The notes: a model not told the origin generated them from the letters alone. DNA of 64,000 nt from an uncultured Alphaproteobacteria bacterium (GCA_937870685.1 CALMZX010000144.1:859-64858); one strand, 5' to 3'. Positions 2,867 to 13,795 are shown, counted from the first letter of the stretch. Made by a program: numbers and translations.

Positions 2867-4402
2867 TCATCCCTCCAGCGCGGGGAGAATGGCGGCGGCA
2901 ACCGTTAAAGTGATCCCGCCGGAGGAGACCAAGTCGCGTGCGGTGGCAAGATCCTTCGCCATGTAGCGGTCGTCTTCCAGTGTCGGCACAGCGGCACGGA
3001 TTGTCCTGATCACAGCCTCAAGCTGCGGACTGGTCTTGAGCGGGCCCCTGAGTTCCACGCCCTGTACGGCGCACAGTGCCTCGATGCCGAGAATGGTGAA
3101 GAGGTTCTCTGTCATCGGCAGCAGGCGGCGCGCTCCATGGCAGGCCATGGAGACGTGGTCTTCCTGGTTGGCGGAGGTGGGTGTTGAATCAACAGAGGCG
3201 GGATGCGCCATCTGCTTGTTCTCGGACATCAGGGCGGCCGAGGTGACTTCCGCAATCATCAGGCCGGAGTTGAGGCCGGGATGGCGCGAAAGGAACGGCG
3301 GCAGGCCGTAGGAGAGCGCCGGATCGACAAGGAGCGCGATGCGGCGCTGGGCGATGGCGCCAATCTCGCAGACGGCAAGCGCGATCTGGTCGGCGGCAAA
3401 GGCCACGGGTTCGGCATGGAAGTTTCCGCCGGAGACAACACTGTTGTCGGCCAGCACCAGCGGGTTGTCGGTAACAGCATTGGCCTCGATTTCCAGTGTG
3501 CGGGCCACCATGCGCAGGAGATCGAGACAGGCGCCATCCACCTGCGGCTGGCAGCGGATGCAATAGGGGTCCTGCACGCGCTCGTCGCCTTCGATGTGAC
3601 TCTCGCGGATCACCGAGCCGTCCAGCAGGTGACGGAGTGCGGCACCGGCATCAATCTGGCCCCTGTGGCCGCGCAGGGAGTGGATGTCCGGATGGAAAGG
3701 GGCTGATGATCCCATCGCCGCATCGGTGGACATGGCGCCTGTGATGAGTGCTGCCTTCAAGGCGCGATGGGCGCGGAACAGGCCCGCCAAGGCAAGGGCT
3801 GTCGAAACCTGCGTGCCATTGATCAGGGCAAGGCCTTCCTTGGCCGCGAGAACGACAGGCGTCAATCCGGCCCTGCCCAGCGCCGCGCGGCCCGGCAGCC
3901 GTTCGCCCTGATAGAAGGCTTCGCCTTCGCCGATCATCACGGCGGTCATGTGCGCCAGCGGTGCGAGGTCACCGGAGGCCCCGACGGAACCTTTTTCGGG
4001 AATGAGCGGTGTCACGCCCTTGTGCAGCATTGCCTCGATGAGGCGCACCAGTTCGAGGCGTACACCCGAGGCACCCCGGCCCAGAGACACGAGCTTCAGG
4101 GCCATGATGAGGCGCACGACATTTTCCGGCAGCGCGTCACCCACGCCGCAGCAGTGGGAGAGAATGAGGTTGCGCTGCAGTGTTGCCACGTCGGCGGCGT
4201 CGATCTTGATCGAGGCGAGTTTGCCGAAACCGGTGTTGACGCCATAGACAGGCGCGTTGCCGCGGGCGATCTCGTCGATGCGCTTCGCCGCCCGGGCAAT
4301 GCCGACGTCGAAGGAGCGGTCGAGGCTGGCGGCAGCGCCCTCCCAATAGATGCGGCGCAACTGGTCCAGCGTCACGTGGCCGGGATGCAGGGTGATGGTC
4401 AT
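2867..4402 (-). CDS. hutH: Histidine ammonia-lyase
   Basis: [13 protein letters not shown] (His-specific SH pair), [11 protein letters not shown] (MIO-forming ASG), [20 protein letters not shown]. Start MTITLHPG at 4402 in a TGATG overlap with hutI. Confidence 0.96.
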
Positions 4403-5619
4403 CAGCGTGTCCTTTGTCCCTTGAAGTAGCAGCTGTGCAGCGGGTTGAAGCCGATGCGGTAGACAAGCTCCGCCAGCGTATCGACATTCCAGATGGCGAG
4501 GTCGGCAGATTTGCCGGCTTCCAGTGTTCCTGCCTCGGCGCCAATGCCAAGGGCGCATGCGGCCTCACGCGTGCTGCCTGCGATGCACTCCTCGACCGTG
4601 AGGCCGAAGAGCGTCGCCGACATGTTCATGGTGAGCAGCAGGGAGGTGAGCGGCGATGTGCCGGGATTGCAGTCTGTCGAGATGGCGATTTTCACGCCTG
4701 CGTCGCGCAGCAGCTGCACGGGCGGCTTGCGCGTTTCATGGATGGCGTAGAAGGCCCCCGGCAGCAACACCGCAACGCTGCCCGCCTCCGCCATGGCAGA
4801 GGCACCTGCTGCATCGAGATATTCAAGATGATCTGCCGAAAGGGCATTGTAGCGCGCCGCCAGTTTCGCGCCGCCCATGTCGGACAATTGCTCGGCATGC
4901 AGCTTGACGGGCAGGCCAAGCGCCTTTGCCCTGTCGAAGACACGGGCCATCTCGTCCGTGGTGAAGGCAATGCGCTCGCAGAAACCATCGACGGCATCAA
5001 CGAGGCCTTCCGCCTGGGCGAGGTCGAGGCCCGGCAGCACCACGTCCGTGACATAGTCGCCGTTGCGGCCCTTGTAGGCAGCGGGTGTTGCGTGGGCGGC
5101 GAGATAGCTTGTCTTGACGCGGACAGGGCGCAGTCCGGCCACCTTCCGGGCGGCTCGCAGCATGCGCAATTCGCCATCGATCGAAAGGCCATAGCCGGAC
5201 TTGATCTCAAGCGTCGTCACACCTTCGGCCAACAAGGTGTCAATGCGTGGCAGGCTTGCGGCCGCCAGTTCATCCACGCCGAGTGCGTTGGTGGCCTGCA
5301 CCGAGGAGACAATGCCGCCGCCAGCACGGGCGATTTCTTCATAGCTGGCGCCAGCAAGCCGCATTTCAAATTCGCGGGCGCGGTGGCCGCCGTGCACGAT
5401 GTGGGTGTGGCAATCGACAAGGCCAGGCGTCACCCAGCGGCCTTCGAGGTTGATGGGTTCGGCGCTGTTCCGCGGCAGGTCAGCCTCGGGACCGGCATAG
5501 GCGATCCTGCCGTTCTCGATCAGGACGGCACCGCGCTCAATGAGGCCAAGGCCCGGAGTGCCGGGCGCAAGGCAGGCAAGGCGGGCGTTGCCGAGGCAGA
5601 TGCTTGGGGGAGGTGACAT
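4402..5619 (-). CDS. hutI: Imidazolonepropionase
   Basis: [43 protein letters not shown] motifs. Confidence 0.95.
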
Positions 5620-5652
5620 GAAACAATCCCGGTGAGCGTGCTGTTGCTCTTT

Positions 5653-5666
5653 TATGTATAGACATA
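5653..5666. promoter_or_regulatory. Putative HutC operator in the divergent hutI/hutF spacer
   Basis: Near-palindrome TATGTATAGACATA resembles the known HutC-type box (TGTATATACA core); hutC is adjacent. Confidence 0.7.
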
Positions 5667-5731
5667 TTACGACCCATGCAATAGGATTCTGTCATCGCAC
5701 CTGAACACCCGTTGCCGTAGCGAGGACCGCC

Positions 5732-7081
5732 ATGACATTTCTCTTTGCCGAGTCTGCCCTGCTGCCCACCGGTTGGCACAGCATGGTCCGCATCCGCGTG
5801 CAGGATGGCCTCATTGCTTCCGTTGAATCAGGTGCAGCACCGCAGCCCGAAGATGAAAGGCATGCGGTGCTGGTGCCGGGTCTCGGTAATCTGCATTCCC
5901 ATGCCTTCCAGCGCGGCATGGCCGGGCTGGCGGAGGTGCGCGGCCCCGGCGACGACAGCTTCTGGAGCTGGCGCAAGATCATGTATGGCTTTGCCCTTGC
6001 CATCGCGCCGGACCAGCTGGAGGCCGTTGCAGCACAGCTTTATGTGGAAATGCTGGAGGCCGGTTACACGCGCGTCGGCGAGTTCCACTACCTGCATCAC
6101 GATGTGGATGGCCGCCCCTATGCACGCCTCGCCGAACTGGCGGAACGGATCGCGGCGGCCTCTGCTGAAACCGGACTGGCGCTGACACTGCTTCCGGTCT
6201 TCTATGCCCATGCAGGATTTGGCGGCAGGGAACCGCAGCCCGCGCAACGGCGATTCATCACCTCGCCTGATCTCTATGCGCGCCTCGTTTCGGACTGCCG
6301 GGGCATCACGCAAGCCCTGCCGGGTGGAAAGACCGGCGTGGCGCCGCACAGCCTGCGCGCCGTGACGCCGGATGAATTGAAAGCCATCCTGCCGCTGTCG
6401 GAACAGGGGCCTATTCACATTCACATCGCCGAACAGGTGCAGGAGGTGGAGGATTGCGTGGCCTGGTCCGGCCAGCGTCCGGTGGACTGGCTGCTGGGTC
6501 ACATGCCGGTCAATGACAGGTGGACCCTCATCCACGCCACGCACATGACGGAGAAGGAAACCGCTGGCATGGCCGCCGCCAAGGCCGTGGCGGGTCTCTG
6601 CCCGGTGACGGAAGCCAATCTGGGCGATGGTGTGTTTCCAGCCAACCGCTTTCTGGGGGCAGGTGGCCGCTTTGGCGTGGGTTCGGATTCAAACGTGTTC
6701 GTTTCCCTCCCCGAAGAGCTGCGGCAGCTTGAGTATTCACAGCGCCTCTTTCACCGCTCGCGCAATGTGATTGCCGCTCCCGGCCAATCCACGGGCGAAA
6801 GGCTGTTCAGGGAAGCGGTGGCCGGTGGCGCGCAGTCGTTGCAGGGTGGCGGCCCCATTGCCATGGGCAACGACGCCGACCTTGTCTCCCTTGATCTGTC
6901 GGCCTGTGATCATCTCCCGGCCTCAGCCAGTCTCGACCAGTGGATCTTCGCACGTGGCGTCAGTGTCGACTGTGTCTGGGCGCGCGGCGTGAAGCGCGTG
7001 AAACAGGGGCGGCATGCGGCGCGCGACGCAATCGCCTCGCGCTTCAGGGCCGTCATGCGCAGCCTTGCGGAGAAGATGTGA
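5732..7081 (+). CDS. hutF: Formimidoylglutamate deiminase
   Basis: NLHSHAFQRGMAG, VGEFHYLHH, APHSLRAV, HIHIAEQ, CPVTEANLGDG, GSDSN motifs. Confidence 0.95.
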   Translation: MTFLFAESALLPTGWHSMVRIRVQDGLIASVESGAAPQPEDERHAVLVPGLGNLHSHAFQRGMAGLAEVRGPGDDSFWSWRKIMYGFALAIAPDQLEAVAAQLYVEMLEAGYTRVGEFHYLHHDVDGRPYARLAELAERIAAASAETGLALTLLPVFYAHAGFGGREPQPAQRRFITSPDLYARLVSDCRGITQALPGGKTGVAPHSLRAVTPDELKAILPLSEQGPIHIHIAEQVQEVEDCVAWSGQRPVDWLLGHMPVNDRWTLIHATHMTEKETAGMAAAKAVAGLCPVTEANLGDGVFPANRFLGAGGRFGVGSDSNVFVSLPEELRQLEYSQRLFHRSRNVIAAPGQSTGERLFREAVAGGAQSLQGGGPIAMGNDADLVSLDLSACDHLPASASLDQWIFARGVSVDCVWARGVKRVKQGRHAARDAIASRFRAVMRSLAEKM

Positions 7082-7112
7082 TGAAACATCGCAGGCTCCG
7101 GGGCAGTCGGCC

Positions 7113-7850
7113 ATGATCCGGAACGCAAAGCGCGCTCCCGCCGCGAGCCTGCACCAGCGCATCCTCTCTGACCTTGAGCACAGAATCGTCTCGGGCCAAT
7201 GGCCGCCGGGGCACCGCCTGCCGTTCGAGGTCGATCTGGCGGAGTCCTACAAGGTCTCGCGCATGACCGTGAACAAGGTGCTGACGCAGATGGCAGGCGC
7301 CGGCCTCATCGAGCGCCGCCGGAAGCTCGGCAGTTTCGTGGCGCAGCCGCAGGCGCAGTCCGCCATTCTTGAAATCCATGACATCGAAACGGAAGTGCGG
7401 TCACTCAATCTCGCCTATGACTACCGCCTTCTGGAACAGGCAAAGCGAATGGCGTCGGCGGATGACATCGCGAACTTCGGCCTTGCCCGCAAAGCTGGCG
7501 TTCTCGCCAGCAGGAGCCTGCATCTCGCGGGCGGGGTGCCCTTCTGCCTGGAAGACCGACTCATCAATCTCGCGGTGGTGCCGCAAGCAGCCGATGCAGA
7601 TTTCAGCCAGACGCCACCGGGCACATGGCTCACCCGTCAGGTGCCGTGGAGCACGGCGGAGCACACCATCCGCGCCATCGCGGCCGATCCCGCGCTGGCC
7701 CGCGCCCTGTCGATTCCGAAACATGCGCCATGCCTCGTGGTGCAGCGCCGCACCTGGAACGGCGAGGGGCCCGTCACCTTCGCGCGCTTCTCCTATCCGG
7801 CGGACAAACATGTGGTGGTGGCGCGCTTCACACCTGCGTCCTCCACCTGA
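7113..7850 (+). CDS. hutC: Histidine utilisation repressor (GntR/UTRA)
   Basis: wHTH (IVSGQWPPGHRLPFE...VSRMTVNK) plus UTRA domain (VPWSTAEHTI); located in the hut cluster. Confidence 0.9.
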   Translation: MIRNAKRAPAASLHQRILSDLEHRIVSGQWPPGHRLPFEVDLAESYKVSRMTVNKVLTQMAGAGLIERRRKLGSFVAQPQAQSAILEIHDIETEVRSLNLAYDYRLLEQAKRMASADDIANFGLARKAGVLASRSLHLAGGVPFCLEDRLINLAVVPQAADADFSQTPPGTWLTRQVPWSTAEHTIRAIAADPALARALSIPKHAPCLVVQRRTWNGEGPVTFARFSYPADKHVVVARFTPASST

Positions 7851-7932
7851 AGGCGCTCATGAAATGGGGTCGGCATGGTGATGACGGTAGCTCCATACTT
7901 TCTGTTGCGCTGCGGTACGGCTGGGCAGGCCT

Positions 7933-7946
7933 TTGATCTTCATCAA
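7933..7946. promoter_or_regulatory. FNR/FixK-type binding site
   Basis: Perfect TTGAT-N4-ATCAA (TTGATCTTCATCAA), 100 bp upstream of the oxidoreductase gamma-subunit start. Confidence 0.8.
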
Positions 7947-8045
7947 AGTCAACGCCGCCGATCAGGGCCATAGGAAACGGTCACACGCAGCCGCAGGCGA
8001 TTGGGCGGCCCGTGGCATGGTCCTTGGCTCCTCTCGGGGGTGTTG

Positions 8046-8648
8046 ATGTTTCAGGTGCGAATACATGGCCGTGGCGGCCAGGGCGTCGTCACCGCAGCGG
8101 AAATGCTCTCCGTTGCGGCCTTCATCGAGGGGCGGCACGCCCAGGCCTTTCCCAGTTTCGGCTCGGAACGCATGGGGGCACCTGTCGTTGCCTTCTGCCG
8201 CATTTCCGACCGCGAGATACGGCTGCGCGAACCGATCCAGACGCCCGATGCGCTGATCGTGCAGGACGTCACACTGTTCCGGGCCATGGATGTGCTGGAA
8301 GGCCTCTCGCCGTCGGGCTACCTGCTGGTCAACACCGGCAAGGGCTTCGCGGACATCCATCAGGAAGCTGCGGCGGCGCGCCTGCCGCCCGGCCACGCCC
8401 AGACCATTGGTGCCACGGAGCTGGCGCTCGCGCATGTGGGGCGCCCTGCTCCCAACACGTCATTGCTCGGGGCCTTCACGGCGCTCTCCGGTCTCGTCTC
8501 GCTCGAATCCGTCCTGGAAGCCATCCGCCGCACCTTTCCCGGAAAGGTGGGCGAGGCCAATGTGATCGCGGCGCGCGCCGCCCATGATCTGGTGGCAGCG
8601 CGCATGGCACCGGACATGCAAACCCGAAAGGATGCAGCCCATGCTTGA
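8046..8648 (+). CDS. porC: 2-oxoacid:acceptor oxidoreductase, gamma subunit
   Basis: RIHGRGGQGVVTAAE, FPSFGSERMGAPV, PNTSLLGA motifs. Confidence 0.9.
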   Translation: MFQVRIHGRGGQGVVTAAEMLSVAAFIEGRHAQAFPSFGSERMGAPVVAFCRISDREIRLREPIQTPDALIVQDVTLFRAMDVLEGLSPSGYLLVNTGKGFADIHQEAAAARLPPGHAQTIGATELALAHVGRPAPNTSLLGAFTALSGLVSLESVLEAIRRTFPGKVGEANVIAARAAHDLVAARMAPDMQTRKDAAHA

Positions 8649-9924
8649 ACAGCTGGAAGGCTCAAAGGCCATGGCCAAGGTGATCGGCCTGTGCCGTCCG
8701 CAGGTGGTCTGCGCCTATCCGATCACGCCGCAGACCCATATCGTTGAAGGCCTGGGTGAACTGGTCCGCACAGGCGACGTGCAGAACTGCGAGTTCATCA
8801 ATGTGGAAAGCGAGTTCGCGGCGCTCTCCGTTGCCATCGGGGCCTCCGCCGCCGGGGCGCGGGCCTACACGGCGACGGCGAGCCAGGGCCTGCTCTTCAT
8901 GGCGGAGGCGGTTTACAATGCGGCGGGCCTCGGCCTTCCCATCGTCATGACGCTGGGCAACCGCGCCATCGGTGCTCCCATCAACATCTGGAACGACCAC
9001 TCTGATGCCATGGCGCTGCGCGAGGCGGGCTGGTTCCAGCTCTTTGCCGAGAACAACCAGGAAGCCGCCGATCTGCACATCATCGCCTTCAGGCTGGCGG
9101 AAGAGCTGTCGGTGCCCACGATGGTCTGTGTTGACGGCTTCATCCTCACCCATGCCATGGAGCGGATTGACATTCCCGAGCAGGCGCAGGTCGATACCTA
9201 TCTGCCGCCCTATGAGCCGGTGCAGGTGCTGGACCCGGAAGACCCCATCTCCATCGGTGCCATGGTCGGGCCGGATGCCTTCACCGAGGTGCGCTACCTG
9301 CAATTCTACAAGCAGCAGACCGCCTTCCGTCTCATCGAAAAACTGGCGCATGACTTCAAGAAGCAGTTTGGCCGTGCGGCAGGCGGTCTCCTGCGGACCT
9401 ACAGCATGGATGAAGCCGAGACGGTTGTCGTGGCCATGGGTTCGGTCAATGGCACCATCAAGGACGTGATCGACGAGATGCGCGCCGACGGCATCCTGAT
9501 CGGCCTCGTCTGCCTCATCACCTTCCGGCCCTTCCCCACGCGGGCGCTGCAGGAAGCGCTGTCCCATGCCAAGGATGTGATCGTCATCGACAAGGCACTG
9601 GATGCGGGCATGGGCGGGCCGCTGGCCAGCAACATTGCCATTGCACTGCGCAACCTCGCGCAGACACCCAACATGCATTCGGTGGTGGCAGGGCTGGGCG
9701 GCCGCCCGGTCACCAAGGCAGCACTGCACCGCGTCTTCCGCCAGGCCGTCATCCAGCCATGGGATGGACCGCATTTCCTTGATCTCAACGAACGGGTGAT
9801 CGCGCGCGAAATCCACCGCAAGGGCAAAGCGCGGCGCTCCGGGCCATCGGCGGAAAACGTGCTCAAGCTGCTGGAACGTGAACGGGCCGAAAAGATCGCA
9901 GCGGCAGAGGGAACCGGCCGATGA
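8641..9924 (+). CDS. porA: Pyruvate-type 2-oxoacid oxidoreductase, alpha subunit
   Basis: AYPITPQT, VESEFAA, TATASQGL, NRAIGAP motifs. Confidence 0.9.
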   Translation: MLEQLEGSKAMAKVIGLCRPQVVCAYPITPQTHIVEGLGELVRTGDVQNCEFINVESEFAALSVAIGASAAGARAYTATASQGLLFMAEAVYNAAGLGLPIVMTLGNRAIGAPINIWNDHSDAMALREAGWFQLFAENNQEAADLHIIAFRLAEELSVPTMVCVDGFILTHAMERIDIPEQAQVDTYLPPYEPVQVLDPEDPISIGAMVGPDAFTEVRYLQFYKQQTAFRLIEKLAHDFKKQFGRAAGGLLRTYSMDEAETVVVAMGSVNGTIKDVIDEMRADGILIGLVCLITFRPFPTRALQEALSHAKDVIVIDKALDAGMGGPLASNIAIALRNLAQTPNMHSVVAGLGGRPVTKAALHRVFRQAVIQPWDGPHFLDLNERVIAREIHRKGKARRSGPSAENVLKLLERERAEKIAAAEGTGR

Positions 9925-10931
9925 ACGAGATCCAGAAACTGAAATTCTACCAGAAGGGCACGCTCACGGTTGGCAACCGGTTGGTGGATGAAGCCCAGCG
10001 CAATGTGCAGGCCAGCCTGTCGCGCTCGAATTCACTCACCTGCGGACACCGCGCCTGCCAGGGTTGCGGCGAGGCTCTGGGCGCGCGTTATGCCATCGAT
10101 GCCGCCATGCGGGCGAGCGGCAACAATCTCATCGCCGTCAACGCCACCGGCTGTCTGGAAGTCTTCACCACGCCCTATCCCGAAACGTCCTGGCAGATGC
10201 CATGGATGCACTCGCTTTTCGGAAACGCGGCGGCGGTGGCAACAGGTGTGGCGGCGGCCATGCGCGTCACCAACAGGGCGGGCACACGCGTTGTCGCGCA
10301 GGGCGGCGATGGCGGCACCACGGATATCGGCTTCGGCTGCCTCTCTGGCATGTTCGAACGCAACGATGACGTGCTCTACATCTGCTACGACAACGAAGGT
10401 TACATGAACACGGGCGTGCAGCGCTCCTCGGCAACACCGCCCGCGGCACGCACCGCCACCACGCCGGTTCTGGGGGATGAGCCCGGCAATGTCTTCGGCA
10501 CCGGCAAGTTCGTGCCCAAGATCGCCGTGGCCCACGACATTCCCTATGTGGCGACGGCCAGTGTCGCCGACCTGCACGATCTCGAAATGAAGGTGACCAA
10601 GGCCATGGGTTTCCGGGGTGCGCGCTACATCCAGATCAATGTGCCGTGTCCGCTCGGCTGGGGGGCTGCCTCCCATGACACGATCCGCCTGGCGCGGCTC
10701 GCCATCGAAACCGGCCTGTTCCCCATTTTCGAGGCCGAAAATGGCCGCTTCACACATGTGCGCAAGATCAGGCAGCGCAAGTCCGTCGCCGAATATCTCA
10801 AGCTGCAGCGGCGCTTTGCCCACCTCTTCAAGGGCGGCAAGGAGGACCCCCGCGTGGCGCGCATCCAGGCCATCGCCGACCGTCACATCGCGGACTTCGG
10901 CCTTCTCGAGACACCGGCAGGAGCGGCCTGA
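9921..10931 (+). CDS. porB: 2-oxoacid oxidoreductase, beta (TPP-binding) subunit
   Basis: HRACQGCG, ATGCLEV, GGDGG...YDNEGYMNTG (TPP motif), VPCPLGW. Confidence 0.92.
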   Translation: MNEIQKLKFYQKGTLTVGNRLVDEAQRNVQASLSRSNSLTCGHRACQGCGEALGARYAIDAAMRASGNNLIAVNATGCLEVFTTPYPETSWQMPWMHSLFGNAAAVATGVAAAMRVTNRAGTRVVAQGGDGGTTDIGFGCLSGMFERNDDVLYICYDNEGYMNTGVQRSSATPPAARTATTPVLGDEPGNVFGTGKFVPKIAVAHDIPYVATASVADLHDLEMKVTKAMGFRGARYIQINVPCPLGWGAASHDTIRLARLAIETGLFPIFEAENGRFTHVRKIRQRKSVAEYLKLQRRFAHLFKGGKEDPRVARIQAIADRHIADFGLLETPAGAA

Positions 10932-12556
10932 TGAAACACCCCTATGCCATTGCACTCGACGTGGGCACCAGCCGCCGCAACCTCACGGGATCATGGCGCA
11001 CCCTGCGGCCCGAATATGTTGACCGCCTGCCGCCGTGCAACAATGCCTGCCCGGCAGGCGAGGATATCCAGGGCTGGCTGTTCCATGCGGAGTCGGGCGA
11101 CTACGAGGCGGCATGGCGGGCACTGACGCTCAACAATCCGCTGCCCGCGATCATGGGGCGCGTGTGCTATCATCCGTGTGAAAATGCCTGCAACCGGGCC
11201 AGCATCGATGTGGCCGTCGGGATCAATTCGGTTGAGCGTTTCCTCGGCGACCTGGCAATCGAAAAGGGCTGGGCCTTCGCGCCGCCACCATCTGAAAGTG
11301 GCAAGAAAGTGCTTGTGGTGGGGGCTGGCCCCGCGGGGCTTTCGGCTGCCTATCACCTGCGCCGCCTCGGCCATCAGGTGACCCTGCGTGAGGCCGGGCC
11401 ACTGGCGGGTGGCATGATGCGGTTTGGCATCCCGAAATACCGCCTGCCGCGCCAGATCATCGATGCCGAAGTGAAGCGTATCACTGCCATGGGCGTTGAG
11501 CTTGTTCTCGACAGCAAGGTCGATGACATTGAGCAGGCAATGAAGGACGGCGGTTTTGACGCGGCGTTCCTTGCCGTCGGGGCTCATATCGCGAAGCGCG
11601 CTTATGTCCCGGCGGCAGGTGCTGCCAAGGTGCTGGATGCGGTACAGTTCCTGCGCTCCATGGAGGGCGAGGCACCGCCGCTCCTGGGCCGCAAGGTTGT
11701 TGTCTATGGTGGTGGCAACACGGCCATTGACGTGGCCCGCACGGCGCGCCGTCTCGGCGCGGAAGAAGCAATCATCGTTTACCGCCGCACCCGCGAGAAA
11801 ATGCCTGCCCATGACTTCGAGGTCGAGGAGGCACTGGAAGAGGGCGTGTCGATGAAATGGCTTTCCACCATCAAAACGGTGGATGGTGGCACCCTGCAGA
11901 TCGAGAAGATGGCGCTGGACGACAAGGGCTTTCCCCAGCCCACCGGCGAGTTCGAAACGCTGGAGGCAGACAGTCTCGTTCTGGCGCTGGGGCAAGACGT
12001 GGATCTCTCGCTGCTCGACAACGCGCCCGGCATCGTCATCCAGGACGGCGTGGTGAAAGTCGGGCCGGACATGATGACGGGGCGCGCGGGCGTCTTTGCC
12101 GGTGGCGACATGGCACCCTCGGAGCGCACCGTCACGGTGGCGGTCGGCCATGGCAAGAAGGCGGCGCGCTACATTGACGGCTACCTGCGCGGTGAACCCT
12201 ACGCGGCTGCGCCCAAACATGGCCTTGCTTCGGCCGACCGCCTGAACAGCTGGTATTATGAGGATGCGCCCGCCACGGTTCGGCCCATGCTCAACGCGGC
12301 GCGGCGCATCAACAGCTTCGAGGAAGTGCAGGGCGGACTTGACGAGACCAATGCCCTCTACGAGGCCCGGCGCTGCCTGTCCTGCGGCAACTGCTTCGAG
12401 TGTGACAACTGTTATGGAGTCTGCCCGGACAATGCCGTCATCAAGCTTGGCGCGGGAAACCGATTCCGCATCGACTATGACTACTGCAAGGGCTGTGGCC
12501 TGTGCGCTGCCGAATGTCCCTGCGGTGCCATCGACATGGTACCAGAGACCATCTGA
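10931..12556 (+). CDS. PorD-like 4Fe-4S protein fused with a GltD/SudA-like FAD/NADPH oxidoreductase
   Basis: N-terminal TGSWRTLRP (PorD-like); PPCNNACP...GRVCYHPCENAC Fe-S domain; GAGPAG FAD site; GGGNTAID...YRR NADPH site; C-terminal ferredoxin motifs CFECDNCYGVCP and CKGCGLCAAECP. Confidence 0.85.
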   Translation: MKHPYAIALDVGTSRRNLTGSWRTLRPEYVDRLPPCNNACPAGEDIQGWLFHAESGDYEAAWRALTLNNPLPAIMGRVCYHPCENACNRASIDVAVGINSVERFLGDLAIEKGWAFAPPPSESGKKVLVVGAGPAGLSAAYHLRRLGHQVTLREAGPLAGGMMRFGIPKYRLPRQIIDAEVKRITAMGVELVLDSKVDDIEQAMKDGGFDAAFLAVGAHIAKRAYVPAAGAAKVLDAVQFLRSMEGEAPPLLGRKVVVYGGGNTAIDVARTARRLGAEEAIIVYRRTREKMPAHDFEVEEALEEGVSMKWLSTIKTVDGGTLQIEKMALDDKGFPQPTGEFETLEADSLVLALGQDVDLSLLDNAPGIVIQDGVVKVGPDMMTGRAGVFAGGDMAPSERTVTVAVGHGKKAARYIDGYLRGEPYAAAPKHGLASADRLNSWYYEDAPATVRPMLNAARRINSFEEVQGGLDETNALYEARRCLSCGNCFECDNCYGVCPDNAVIKLGAGNRFRIDYDYCKGCGLCAAECPCGAIDMVPETI

Positions 12557-12559
12557 TCC

Positions 12560-13795
12560 TCAGCGCACCAGACGCACCAGTTCGTTGCTGATCTGGCCCG
12601 CGATCTCGGAGAAGACGAGGCTGATGGATTTTCCGTCCGCATCAGGCTCGTAGTATTTGCCCGGCGCGCAGTCCTTCAGCAGGTTGGTCACCTGCTTGTC
12701 GGTCACGTCATAGGCGATCGAGAACACGTTGATGCCCTTGCCCCGCATGCCGCTGCACAGGGATACCAGGTTCTGCTGTCCGTGCTGGATGTTACGGCTC
12801 TTGCCAGGACCCCATTGTTTTGAGGTCTGCACGCCGTCGGTGAGGAGAATGAGGTACTTGCGCGTCACGCCGTCTGTGTAGGATGCGGTGCCGGAGAATG
12901 GTGCCGCATCATCCAGCAGGTTCCAGCCGAACTCCGCGCCCAGTGCAATGTTGGTGTTGCCCAGCGGGCGCATGGCGTCCAGCTGCGCCTTGACCCTGGT
13001 GAAATCATCCGTGAGCGGAAGAATGTTCAATTGCCGCGTGGCATAGGCGCTGCAGTCGTAGTTGTCGGAGTTTTCCGAGGTCTTGTCGTAGTAGCCCCAC
13101 TTGCTGGTCGCATCGGAGGTTGGCGTGGTGACACCGGTGTTCAGGGGGTGATAGCGATCCTGGGTGCAGCCGGTCCAGATGGCGCCTCCTGTGGCCTGTG
13201 TCACATATTGGACGGGCATGGTGGTGCGGACCATGGCCGAGAAGGGCACCAGCCCGACCTTGAAGCTGCCGTCCTCGGAAGCGGCATCGAGTTTCGCCAC
13301 CATGTCTTTGGCGGCGGCGGCCATGCGCACGTATTTGCCGGATTCACCCATGGAACCGGAGTAGTCGAGCACCAGCACCACTTCAGCCTTGCCGCTTCCC
13401 GGCAGCATCACCTCGGTGCGGGCCTTGGCCTTCATCCTGTCAACGCCGCCCAGTTTCATGAGCAGGCTGGGCATGTCTTCGCTGATGGTGGCGATGACGG
13501 AATTTCCGGTCAGCTTGATGCTGACCTCCGGCGGCGTGGAGTCGATCTTGGTGAGGTTCTTGTCCACATAGGATTTGGCGATGCTGGCACGTTCGGCTTC
13601 GCTGGCGTTCTTGGCTGTCGCGGCCGCAAGTGCTGCACCGTCGAGCACGGCGCTGAGTTCCGTCTGCCGGTCAGAGAGGCGGATGAAATCCACCGCAACG
13701 CCTGCAGCGAGCAGCGCCGGAATGGCCAGAAGTCCGAAGAGGGGCCCGGTGCTGCCGGACGTTGACCGGAGGAATGCCGCGCAGGTGCGGATCAT
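12560..13795 (-). CDS. TadE/TadG-like pilin-motif protein with VWA domain
   Basis: N-terminal G-x3-PLFGLLAIPALL hydrophobic segment; VLVLDYSGSM MIDAS; GNTN; ILLTDG. Confidence 0.8.
   Translation of the reverse strand: MIRTCAAFLRSTSGSTGPLFGLLAIPALLAAGVAVDFIRLSDRQTELSAVLDGAALAAATAKNASEAERASIAKSYVDKNLTKIDSTPPEVSIKLTGNSVIATISEDMPSLLMKLGGVDRMKAKARTEVMLPGSGKAEVVLVLDYSGSMGESGKYVRMAAAAKDMVAKLDAASEDGSFKVGLVPFSAMVRTTMPVQYVTQATGGAIWTGCTQDRYHPLNTGVTTPTSDATSKWGYYDKTSENSDNYDCSAYATRQLNILPLTDDFTRVKAQLDAMRPLGNTNIALGAEFGWNLLDDAAPFSGTASYTDGVTRKYLILLTDGVQTSKQWGPGKSRNIQHGQQNLVSLCSGMRGKGINVFSIAYDVTDKQVTNLLKDCAPGKYYEPDADGKSISLVFSEIAGQISNELVRLVR

Follow-up and report, generated by a model that had tools for sequence, protein, structure and literature searches.

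A predicted NADP+-linked, Por-type 2-oxoacid oxidoreductase with a permuted flavoprotein module inside its delta subunit

Background

The pyruvate:NADP+ oxidoreductase (PNO) of Euglena gracilis and Cryptosporidium is a single-chain pyruvate:ferredoxin oxidoreductase (PFOR) fused to a flavin mononucleotide/flavin adenine dinucleotide (FMN/FAD) module of the NADPH-cytochrome P450 reductase type. Its net reaction, in which pyruvate, coenzyme A (CoA) and NADP+ give acetyl-CoA, CO2 and NADPH with no free ferredoxin, is also predicted for the product of a four-gene operon in a 64,000-nucleotide (nt) stretch of DNA from an uncultured alphaproteobacterium (GCA_937870685.1, CALMZX010000144.1:859-64858; hereafter the window, with coordinates counted from its first letter). 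The operon encodes the gamma, alpha and beta subunits of a Por-type enzyme and, as its fourth product, a protein here called deltaF, in which a delta subunit of the PorD type encloses an NADPH flavoprotein module. The probability that these genes encode a four-subunit Por-type 2-oxoacid oxidoreductase, with pyruvate as its most likely substrate and the delta subunit as its NADP+-reducing outlet, is put at roughly 65%. The flavoprotein of PNO is unrelated to deltaF, and the deltaF enzyme would have solved the same problem independently.

In 2003, Ebenau-Jehle, Boll and Fuchs reportedly described a 2-oxoglutarate oxidoreductase (KGOR) of Azoarcus evansii that reduces NADP+ and not NAD+; the NADPH site, FAD and Fe-S clusters are said to reside on its 62-kDa subunit, and comparable genes were reportedly noted in Bradyrhizobium. 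Like the deltaF enzyme, KGOR is said to join a thiamine pyrophosphate (TPP)/Fe-S oxidoreductase to a GltD/NfnB/DsrL-like flavoprotein with a C-terminal ferredoxin domain. However, KGOR consists of a two-subunit KorAB-type enzyme and a separate flavoprotein, whereas the enzyme described here is of the four-subunit Por/Vor type and has the flavoprotein as its delta subunit. Its gamma and alpha are separate and PFOR-like, unlike those of KGOR, and the scores of Kor/Oor models are only 34-112 bits; the substrate of KGOR is 2-oxoglutarate, whereas that of the enzyme here is probably pyruvate. A KGOR-type cluster is present in an 8-Mb genome of the same order (L134:3873-8711), where it consists of a flavoprotein of 599 amino acids (aa), KorA (fused POR and POR_N) and KorB, three genes that we take to match the subunit pattern of the Azoarcus evansii enzyme. 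This flavoprotein shares 31% identity with deltaF across residues 27-536; it has no PorD arm, and its NADPH-site motif is R-S, not Y-R-R. The original prediction of the operon, a reading of the DNA alone, was aware of no characterized example of such a system; none was found for the Por-type form, but the homologous flavoprotein reported for KGOR limits that claim. The deltaF enzyme would represent a Por-type, delta-inserted version of the NADP+-linked 2-oxoacid oxidoreductases. KGOR-alpha has been listed among the relatives of GltD, NfnB and DsrL, in one clade with NsoC homologues (PMC10134865).

DsrL, with 37% identity, four [4Fe-4S] clusters, FAD and, in DsrL-2, a YRR motif, is the closest characterized homologue of deltaF. 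It is encoded in dsr clusters, has DsrAB as its partner and lacks a PorD arm, whereas deltaF is directly linked to por-type genes; the third criterion used by the DsrL authors excludes homologues linked to pyruvate/ketoisovalerate oxidoreductase genes, that is, proteins of the deltaF type (PMC7596348). Both kinds of protein fall into the NCBIfam family NF009410/PRK12771, named 'NAD(P)-binding protein', which deltaF matches at 766.5 bits (cut-off 516; residues 9-539 on positions 23-565 of the 566 in the model). A genuine DsrL of 657 aa, encoded in a dsrM-K-L-J-O-P cluster (L131:3768-10525), is also accepted, at 718 bits, so that one model lumps DsrL with the delta-flavoproteins of 2-oxoacid:ferredoxin oxidoreductases (OFORs). 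Matches above the cut-off occur in 46 of 301 genomes of the order, as deltaF-type proteins of about 540 aa and DsrL-type proteins of about 650 aa, and several genomes carry both. The deltaF design is widespread and catalogued, not unprecedented.

Among solved structures, the best matches of deltaF are StnC of the Sporomusa-type transhydrogenase (8oh5) and the large subunits of NfnABC (9bov and 9n5u), with 326 and 301 bits and template modelling (TM) scores of 0.78-0.80. These proteins contain the same permuted GltD module as an insert in an Fe-S protein, as deltaF does, but the host is NuoG/FdhF-like rather than PorD, and the complex is a transhydrogenase rather than a 2-oxoacid oxidoreductase. 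In proteins of the GltD/NfnB/SudA type the whole Fer4_20 domain is N-terminal, a linear order that deltaF does not have. PorABCD of Methanosarcina acetivorans (PDB 9bt4) contains clear homologues of the gamma, alpha and beta subunits, and the arm and dicluster domain of its delta subunit are recognizable in deltaF; the M. acetivorans PorD has about 85 aa, compared with 541 aa for deltaF, and the acceptor predicted here is NADP+ rather than ferredoxin.

The phenylglyoxylate:NAD+ oxidoreductase PadEFGHI is another Por-like enzyme with an added flavoprotein, which serves to reduce the pyridine nucleotide, and the models for PadE, PadG and PadI match the gamma, alpha and beta subunits below their cut-offs. 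Its delta subunit PadF is a separate small protein, unlike deltaF. PadEFGHI was considered as the nearest system and dropped: when the whole assembly was searched with the PadH model (NF045765), deltaF was not matched, and PadH belongs to a different flavoprotein family.

A PorD-type delta subunit split by a flavoprotein module

The four genes lie on the + strand in the order gamma, alpha, beta, deltaF, and Pfam matches bear out the identities first given to the three genes that precede deltaF. The gamma gene (8046..8648, with its ATG at 8046) encodes a protein of about 200 aa made up of the POR domain, the equivalent of CoA-binding domain III (PF01558, 135 bits), and scores 196.8 bits on TIGR02175 PorC_KorC (cut-off 81.1). 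The alpha gene (8641..9924) encodes POR_N and PFOR_II domains; its likely start is the ATG at 8641, with an alternative ATG at 8632. The beta gene (9921..10931) encodes the TPP-binding subunit with a TPP_enzyme_C domain and the proximal [4Fe-4S] cysteines C46, C49, C78 and C243, all four of which are invariant in a set of 35 orthologues from several phyla. The deltaF gene (10931..12556) is an open frame of 541 codons. The stop of gamma and the ATG of alpha overlap by 8 nt (ATGCTTGA), alpha and beta overlap by ATGA, and beta and deltaF meet in TGATG, in which one base is common to the stop and the ATG. Every junction of the four genes overlaps, which indicates a single translationally coupled operon.

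At 541 aa, deltaF is not a small stand-alone delta subunit, which would have about 80-105 aa; about 450 residues separate its N-terminal arm from its dicluster domain. The Pfam map of deltaF consists of Fer4_20 at residues 34-113 (72.9 bits), Pyr_redox_2 at residues 125-408 (114.9 bits) and a 4Fe-4S dicluster domain at residues 487-536. Mapping with hidden Markov models, which had been proposed as a check, thus placed Fer4_20, Pyr_redox_2 and both halves of PorD in the protein.

The PorD N-terminal arm (10943..11023, + strand; residues 5-31) has the motif N-x-T-G-x-W-R-x-x-R-P-x-Y and corresponds to positions 5-31 of the 85-position NCBIfam profile PorD_Arch (E 7.6e-5). It also matches residues 8-36 of the M. 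acetivorans PorD (9bt4_G; E 0.023 against the PDB). As judged from the profile match, which is significant but short, the PorD likeness of the N-terminus is more than a chance motif. Ten residues of the arm (P4, A6, G12, S14, N17, T19, G20, W22, R23 and Y29) are invariant in the 35 orthologues, a pattern that fits a predicted role at a subunit interface, and G20, W22 and P27 are kept family-wide in a separate alignment of 41 sequences with 36-58% identity.

At the other end, the PorD-type 2x[4Fe-4S] ferredoxin domain (12392..12553, + strand; residues 488-541) contains the cysteines C488, C491, C494 and C498 and the cysteines C519, C522, C525 and C529. Residues 478-541 correspond to PorD_Arch positions 24-85, and the ferredoxin domain also matches residues 32-83 of 9bt4_G. 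TIGR02179 PorD_KorD scores 63.3 bits on the whole of deltaF and 64.5 bits on residues 440-541, above its cut-off of 60.05, so the claim that the fourth gene is PorD-like at both ends is upheld. The control was a genuine DsrL, encoded in the dsrMKLJOP cluster of another genome in the order. It has the same general architecture as deltaF but reaches only 36 bits on TIGR02179 and has no PorD match at its N-terminus; the PorD likeness is therefore specific to deltaF and not general to this flavoprotein family.

Between the two ends lies a GltD-type module whose parts are out of their linear order. The segment after the arm (11030..11269, + strand; residues 34-113) is the second part of Fer4_20, covering profile positions 30-112 and including C36, C40, C79, C83, C87 and E102. 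It is followed by the FAD and NAD(P)H dinucleotide-binding domains (11303..12154, + strand; residues 125-408), which were matched as Pyr_redox_2 and aligned to NfnB and StnC. The first part of Fer4_20 is displaced to the C-terminal side (12305..12391, + strand; residues 459-487, profile positions 1-29, E 8.8e-5), where it includes C482 and C485 and aligns, after the flavin domains, to residues 16-43 of Thermotoga maritima NfnB. As read from the order of these profile matches, the GltD-type module in deltaF is circularly permuted, in the same order as in StnC. The break falls between the second and third cysteines of the distal GltD cluster, so that the ends of the module meet there; the PorD arm is joined to one of these ends and the PorD ferredoxin domain to the other. 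A plain insertion of an intact GltD domain was rejected on finding Fer4_20 positions 1-29 at residues 459-487. The complete GltD/SudA-type domain of the original prediction is thus present in all its parts, including the GGGNTA and YRR motifs, but it is permuted rather than simply inserted.

Fifteen cysteines of deltaF (C36, C40, C79, C83, C87, C482, C485, C488, C491, C494, C498, C519, C522, C525 and C529) are invariant or nearly so in the 41-sequence alignment, and E102 is nearly invariant. These fifteen cysteines and one glutamate would provide for four [4Fe-4S] clusters. By homology with dihydropyrimidine dehydrogenase (DPD) and NfnB, the predicted ligand sets are C40/C79/C83/E102 and C482/C485/C36/C87, in addition to the two ferredoxin clusters. 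The cluster count agrees with DsrL, in which four Fe-S centres were measured (PMC7596348).

An AlphaFold2 model of deltaF has a mean confidence (pLDDT) of 92 and a predicted TM score (pTM) of 0.91. Structurally it is matched best by Nfn-ABC, StnC and NfnB, with TM scores of 0.65-0.8 for folds of the GltD/NfnB type, and the NfnB chains 4ylf_B and 5jca_L match deltaF at E values of 1e-64 to 1e-67. In StnC, the same permuted module (aa 102-565) is inserted in a NuoG-like protein and binds FAD and NADPH; electrons run through its two clusters, with no bifurcation at this flavin (PMC10482914). As a plug-in unit, the permuted GltD module is thus already known. DeltaF clearly exemplifies the insertion of a domain through circular permutation: a cut of the GltD module at its distal cluster, as in StnC, brings the two ends together, and they can then be spliced into a ferredoxin.

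The permuted module is also fused to IOR-like POR_N+TPP proteins of about 1100 aa (among P0205, P0211, P0232, P0252 and P0266), and other fusions in the same group of proteins involve a dihydroorotate-dehydrogenase-like domain and an HdrA-like/MvhD (FlpD) protein. From its sequence contexts, the permuted module appears to behave as a portable NADPH plug.

Linkage of deltaF to the oxidoreductase subunits

At least 585 relatives of deltaF were found in species-representative genomes, and the loci of the best 80 were analysed. These loci belong to Alphaproteobacteria, Betaproteobacteria, Gammaproteobacteria, Actinomycetota and Acidobacteriota; their record names include Rhodocyclaceae, Gallionella, Azospirillum, Magnetovibrio, Sutterella and Solirubrobacterales, as well as relatives of Actinomyces and a SAR11 genome from an oxygen-minimum zone. 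The order gamma-alpha-beta-deltaF was present in all 70 loci with enough upstream DNA, from at least three phyla, with subunit identities of 51-88% save for two poorer gamma matches. In the remaining ten loci, which are cut off upstream, beta directly precedes deltaF, and one of them also retains alpha. The arrangement porC-porD-porA-porB, which differs from that of the window, is kept in a distant member of the family, 41% identical to deltaF, as porC-[deltaF]-porA-porB, with the flavoprotein in the slot of porD. Fusions of gamma (POR) with deltaF also exist, as proteins of 712-758 aa. In a profile search of the assembly, which is 92% complete, neither a second POR_N gene nor a second PorD above the cut-off was found.

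A DsrL-like protein that merely happens to lie beside por genes was rejected as an explanation, given the synteny in 70 of 70 loci, the fusions with gamma and the PorD-specific features that are absent from DsrL. The identification of deltaF as the delta subunit of the oxidoreductase, with an NADPH flavoprotein module inside it, is supported.

Orthologues in other phyla are 63-78% identical to deltaF. Within the genus, a deltaF-type match above the cut-off was found in two of six other genomes, besides the assembly from which the window comes. The cassette has the look of an accessory module that spreads horizontally.

Cofactor and predicted electron route

The YRR motif of deltaF (Y284, R285 and R286; 11780-11788) is invariant in the 35 orthologues. 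The motif binds the NADPH phosphate in NfnB; DsrL-2 contains it and works with NADP(H) but not NAD(H), whereas DsrL-1, without it, prefers NAD(H) (PMC7596348). StnC was solved with NADPH bound (PMC10482914). The use of YRR as a marker of NADP(H) is therefore backed by experiment in the nearest characterized relatives, NfnB and DsrL-2, and the invariance of the motif, the specificity of DsrL-2 and the NADPH-bound StnC structure together make NADP+ the likely acceptor.

The assembly of the subunits, the path of the electrons and their direct flow to NADP+ are predictions. TPP on the alpha and beta subunits would decarboxylate the 2-oxoacid oxidatively with CoA and would pass single electrons to the [4Fe-4S] cluster of beta. 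The PorD-type ferredoxin domain, with its two clusters, could take up the electrons from there and hand them on to the pair of clusters in the permuted Fer4_20 domain, after which FAD would gather two electrons and transfer a hydride to NADP+. Free ferredoxin would be unnecessary, and the reaction should be strongly exergonic and one-way in practice.

Substrate and alternative functions

Pyruvate is the most likely substrate, with odds slightly better than even. The best solved relative of the alpha subunit is PFOR alpha of M. acetivorans (9bt4_B, 364 bits), ahead of the alpha subunit of oxalate oxidoreductase (224 bits); the beta subunit scores 297 bits against the M. acetivorans PFOR (9bt4_C) and 223 bits against oxalate oxidoreductase. 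A phosphoenolpyruvate (PEP) synthase gene adjoins the cassette in several loci of Actinomycetota. The YPITP motif, which the original prediction had read as a sign of a pyruvate-type enzyme, occurs throughout the OFOR family rather than marking pyruvate enzymes (PMC5020499); the argument for pyruvate is based on the overall similarity of alpha and beta and on neighbouring genes elsewhere.

Besides the loss of YPITP as a marker, several observations weigh against a pyruvate:NADP+ enzyme. The alpha, beta and gamma subunits all fall below the NCBIfam equivalog cut-offs for pyruvate enzymes (alpha scores 443 bits on PorA_Arch, for which the cut-off is 550), so pyruvate is at most the probable substrate. 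Nothing in the window points to pyruvate, as the neighbours are histidine-utilization (hut) genes and a Tad-type gene, and the flanking genes are not conserved across the 80 loci, in which clustering of flanking open reading frames gave no family present in more than about seven; the neighbours that did emerge, PEP synthase and a wax ester synthase/diacylglycerol acyltransferase in Actinomycetota, are confined to particular lineages. No biochemical study of a Por-type deltaF enzyme was found in the literature, and a flavoprotein-carrying delta subunit is absent from a November 2026 review of PFOR diversity.

The failure of all three subunits to reach the pyruvate cut-offs also favours the most tenable alternative, that the same chemistry and the same NADP+ outlet serve another substrate, such as 2-oxoisovalerate or other branched-chain 2-oxoacids, 2-oxobutyrate, 2-oxoglutarate or an arylpyruvate. 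The next-highest scores are those of VOR-type models (alpha 295 bits, beta 285 bits), the JGI family name is 'pyruvate/2-ketoisovalerate family', and four-subunit PORs are often promiscuous, as tabulated in PMC13768988. On the other side, among solved structures alpha and beta both come closest to a bona fide PFOR, by a clear margin over oxalate oxidoreductase; PEP synthase adjoins the cassette in some lineages; and the lack of conserved pathway-specific neighbours fits a central metabolite. A substrate other than pyruvate is a serious possibility, yet distinctly the less probable one.

An enzyme that reduces mainly ferredoxin or flavodoxin, in which the flavoprotein module serves as a side exit or entry for keeping NADPH and ferredoxin in balance, is improbable. 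The Azoarcus KGOR reportedly reduced ferredoxin as well as NADP+, a point that tells against an exclusive NADP+ outlet and in favour of this alternative, and the independence of the deltaF enzyme from ferredoxin may accordingly not be absolute. The C-terminal ferredoxin domain of DsrL stands on a linker that has been modelled as flexible (PMC7596348). That of deltaF is instead wired into the flavoprotein on both sides, with the PorD arm before it and the permuted Fer4_20 segment abutting it, and the model packs all domains together (pTM 0.91). The four genes are strictly linked and the cassette includes no gene for a ferredoxin, which argues that the unit is self-contained.

Very unlikely is a flavin in deltaF that bifurcates or confurcates electrons, either in an NADPH-driven pyruvate synthase, in which an NfnB-type FAD would feed a low-potential chain to TPP and a high-potential acceptor, or in an energy-coupled oxidation with a second acceptor; it would amount to a new class of flavin-based electron-bifurcating enzyme in common facultative bacteria. 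In its favour, the flavin module has a bifurcating homologue in NfnB, and the arginine of the I-P-x-Y-R-L-P motif, which has been discussed for bifurcation, is kept as R171. However, NADPH (about -320 mV) cannot alone drive the reductive carboxylation of acetyl-CoA (about -500 mV) at standard potentials. No NfnA-like (PyrK-like FAD/[2Fe-2S]) or other high-potential partner is present in the cassette in any of the 80 loci, and StnC, with the same permuted module, does not bifurcate at this flavin (PMC10482914).

Neutral-lipid genes adjoin the cassette in some Actinomycetota. In four loci with Solirubrobacterales record names (L057:772-3126, L078:1528-2997, L061:1609-3099 and L088:1585-2988), a same-strand gene for a wax ester synthase/diacylglycerol acyltransferase (WS/DGAT) precedes gamma by 4-11 nt, and the PEP synthase gene adjoins the WS/DGAT gene in Solirubrobacterales-named loci. 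These two neighbours hint at a link between the NADPH and acetyl-CoA of the enzyme and the storage of neutral lipids. The WS/DGAT neighbourhood is reminiscent of Euglena, in which PNO is tied to wax-ester fermentation.

Regulation and physiological role

A box of the FNR/FixK type, TTGATCTTCATCAA, is located at 7933..7946 on the + strand, about 100 nt upstream of the start codon of gamma, and is the only perfect TTGAT-N4-ATCAA in the window. Of 67 related loci, 15 have a box with at most one mismatch at 55-138 nt upstream of gamma, compared with 3 of 737 control windows; all 15 box-bearing loci (within L017-L069) have proteobacterial or unclassified record names. The operon may be induced at low oxygen by a regulator of the FNR/FixK type, and such induction suits an Fe-S enzyme. 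The sequencing runs listed as containing parts of 7851-12556 are of wastewater or sludge metagenome DNA, with no RNA run among them, and are uninformative on expression.

If the assignment to a pyruvate:NADP+ oxidoreductase is correct, many facultative and microaerophilic bacteria would oxidize pyruvate at low oxygen with an Fe-S enzyme that yields NADPH directly, by a route that bypasses both pyruvate dehydrogenase and the ferredoxin pool. The supply of acetyl-CoA and NADPH, for example to the synthesis of storage lipids or polymers under hypoxia, would have to be modelled differently, and the routine annotation of the deltaF gene, now 'glutamate synthase' or 'NAD(P)-binding protein', would be corrected. 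The prediction is testable and bears on central metabolism; it would be no surprise to specialists in OFORs, Nfn or DsrL.

Genomic surroundings

Histidine-utilization genes lie directly on the 5' side of the operon (4402-7850) and include a minus-strand amidohydrolase gene, the gene for formimidoylglutamate deiminase (hutF, 5732-7081) and a gene for a GntR/UTRA-type regulator of the hut system (7014-7850). No functional tie between the hut genes and the oxidoreductase operon is apparent. On the 3' side, a gene for a Tad/VWA-domain protein (12560-13795, - strand) converges with deltaF; the stops of the two genes are 3 nt apart, which leaves no room for a separate terminator. Farther along the window, the segment 26001-28000 has a G+C content of 0.705, compared with about 0.63-0.65 in the rest of the window, and the 2 kb before it has a strongly negative AT skew (-0.23).

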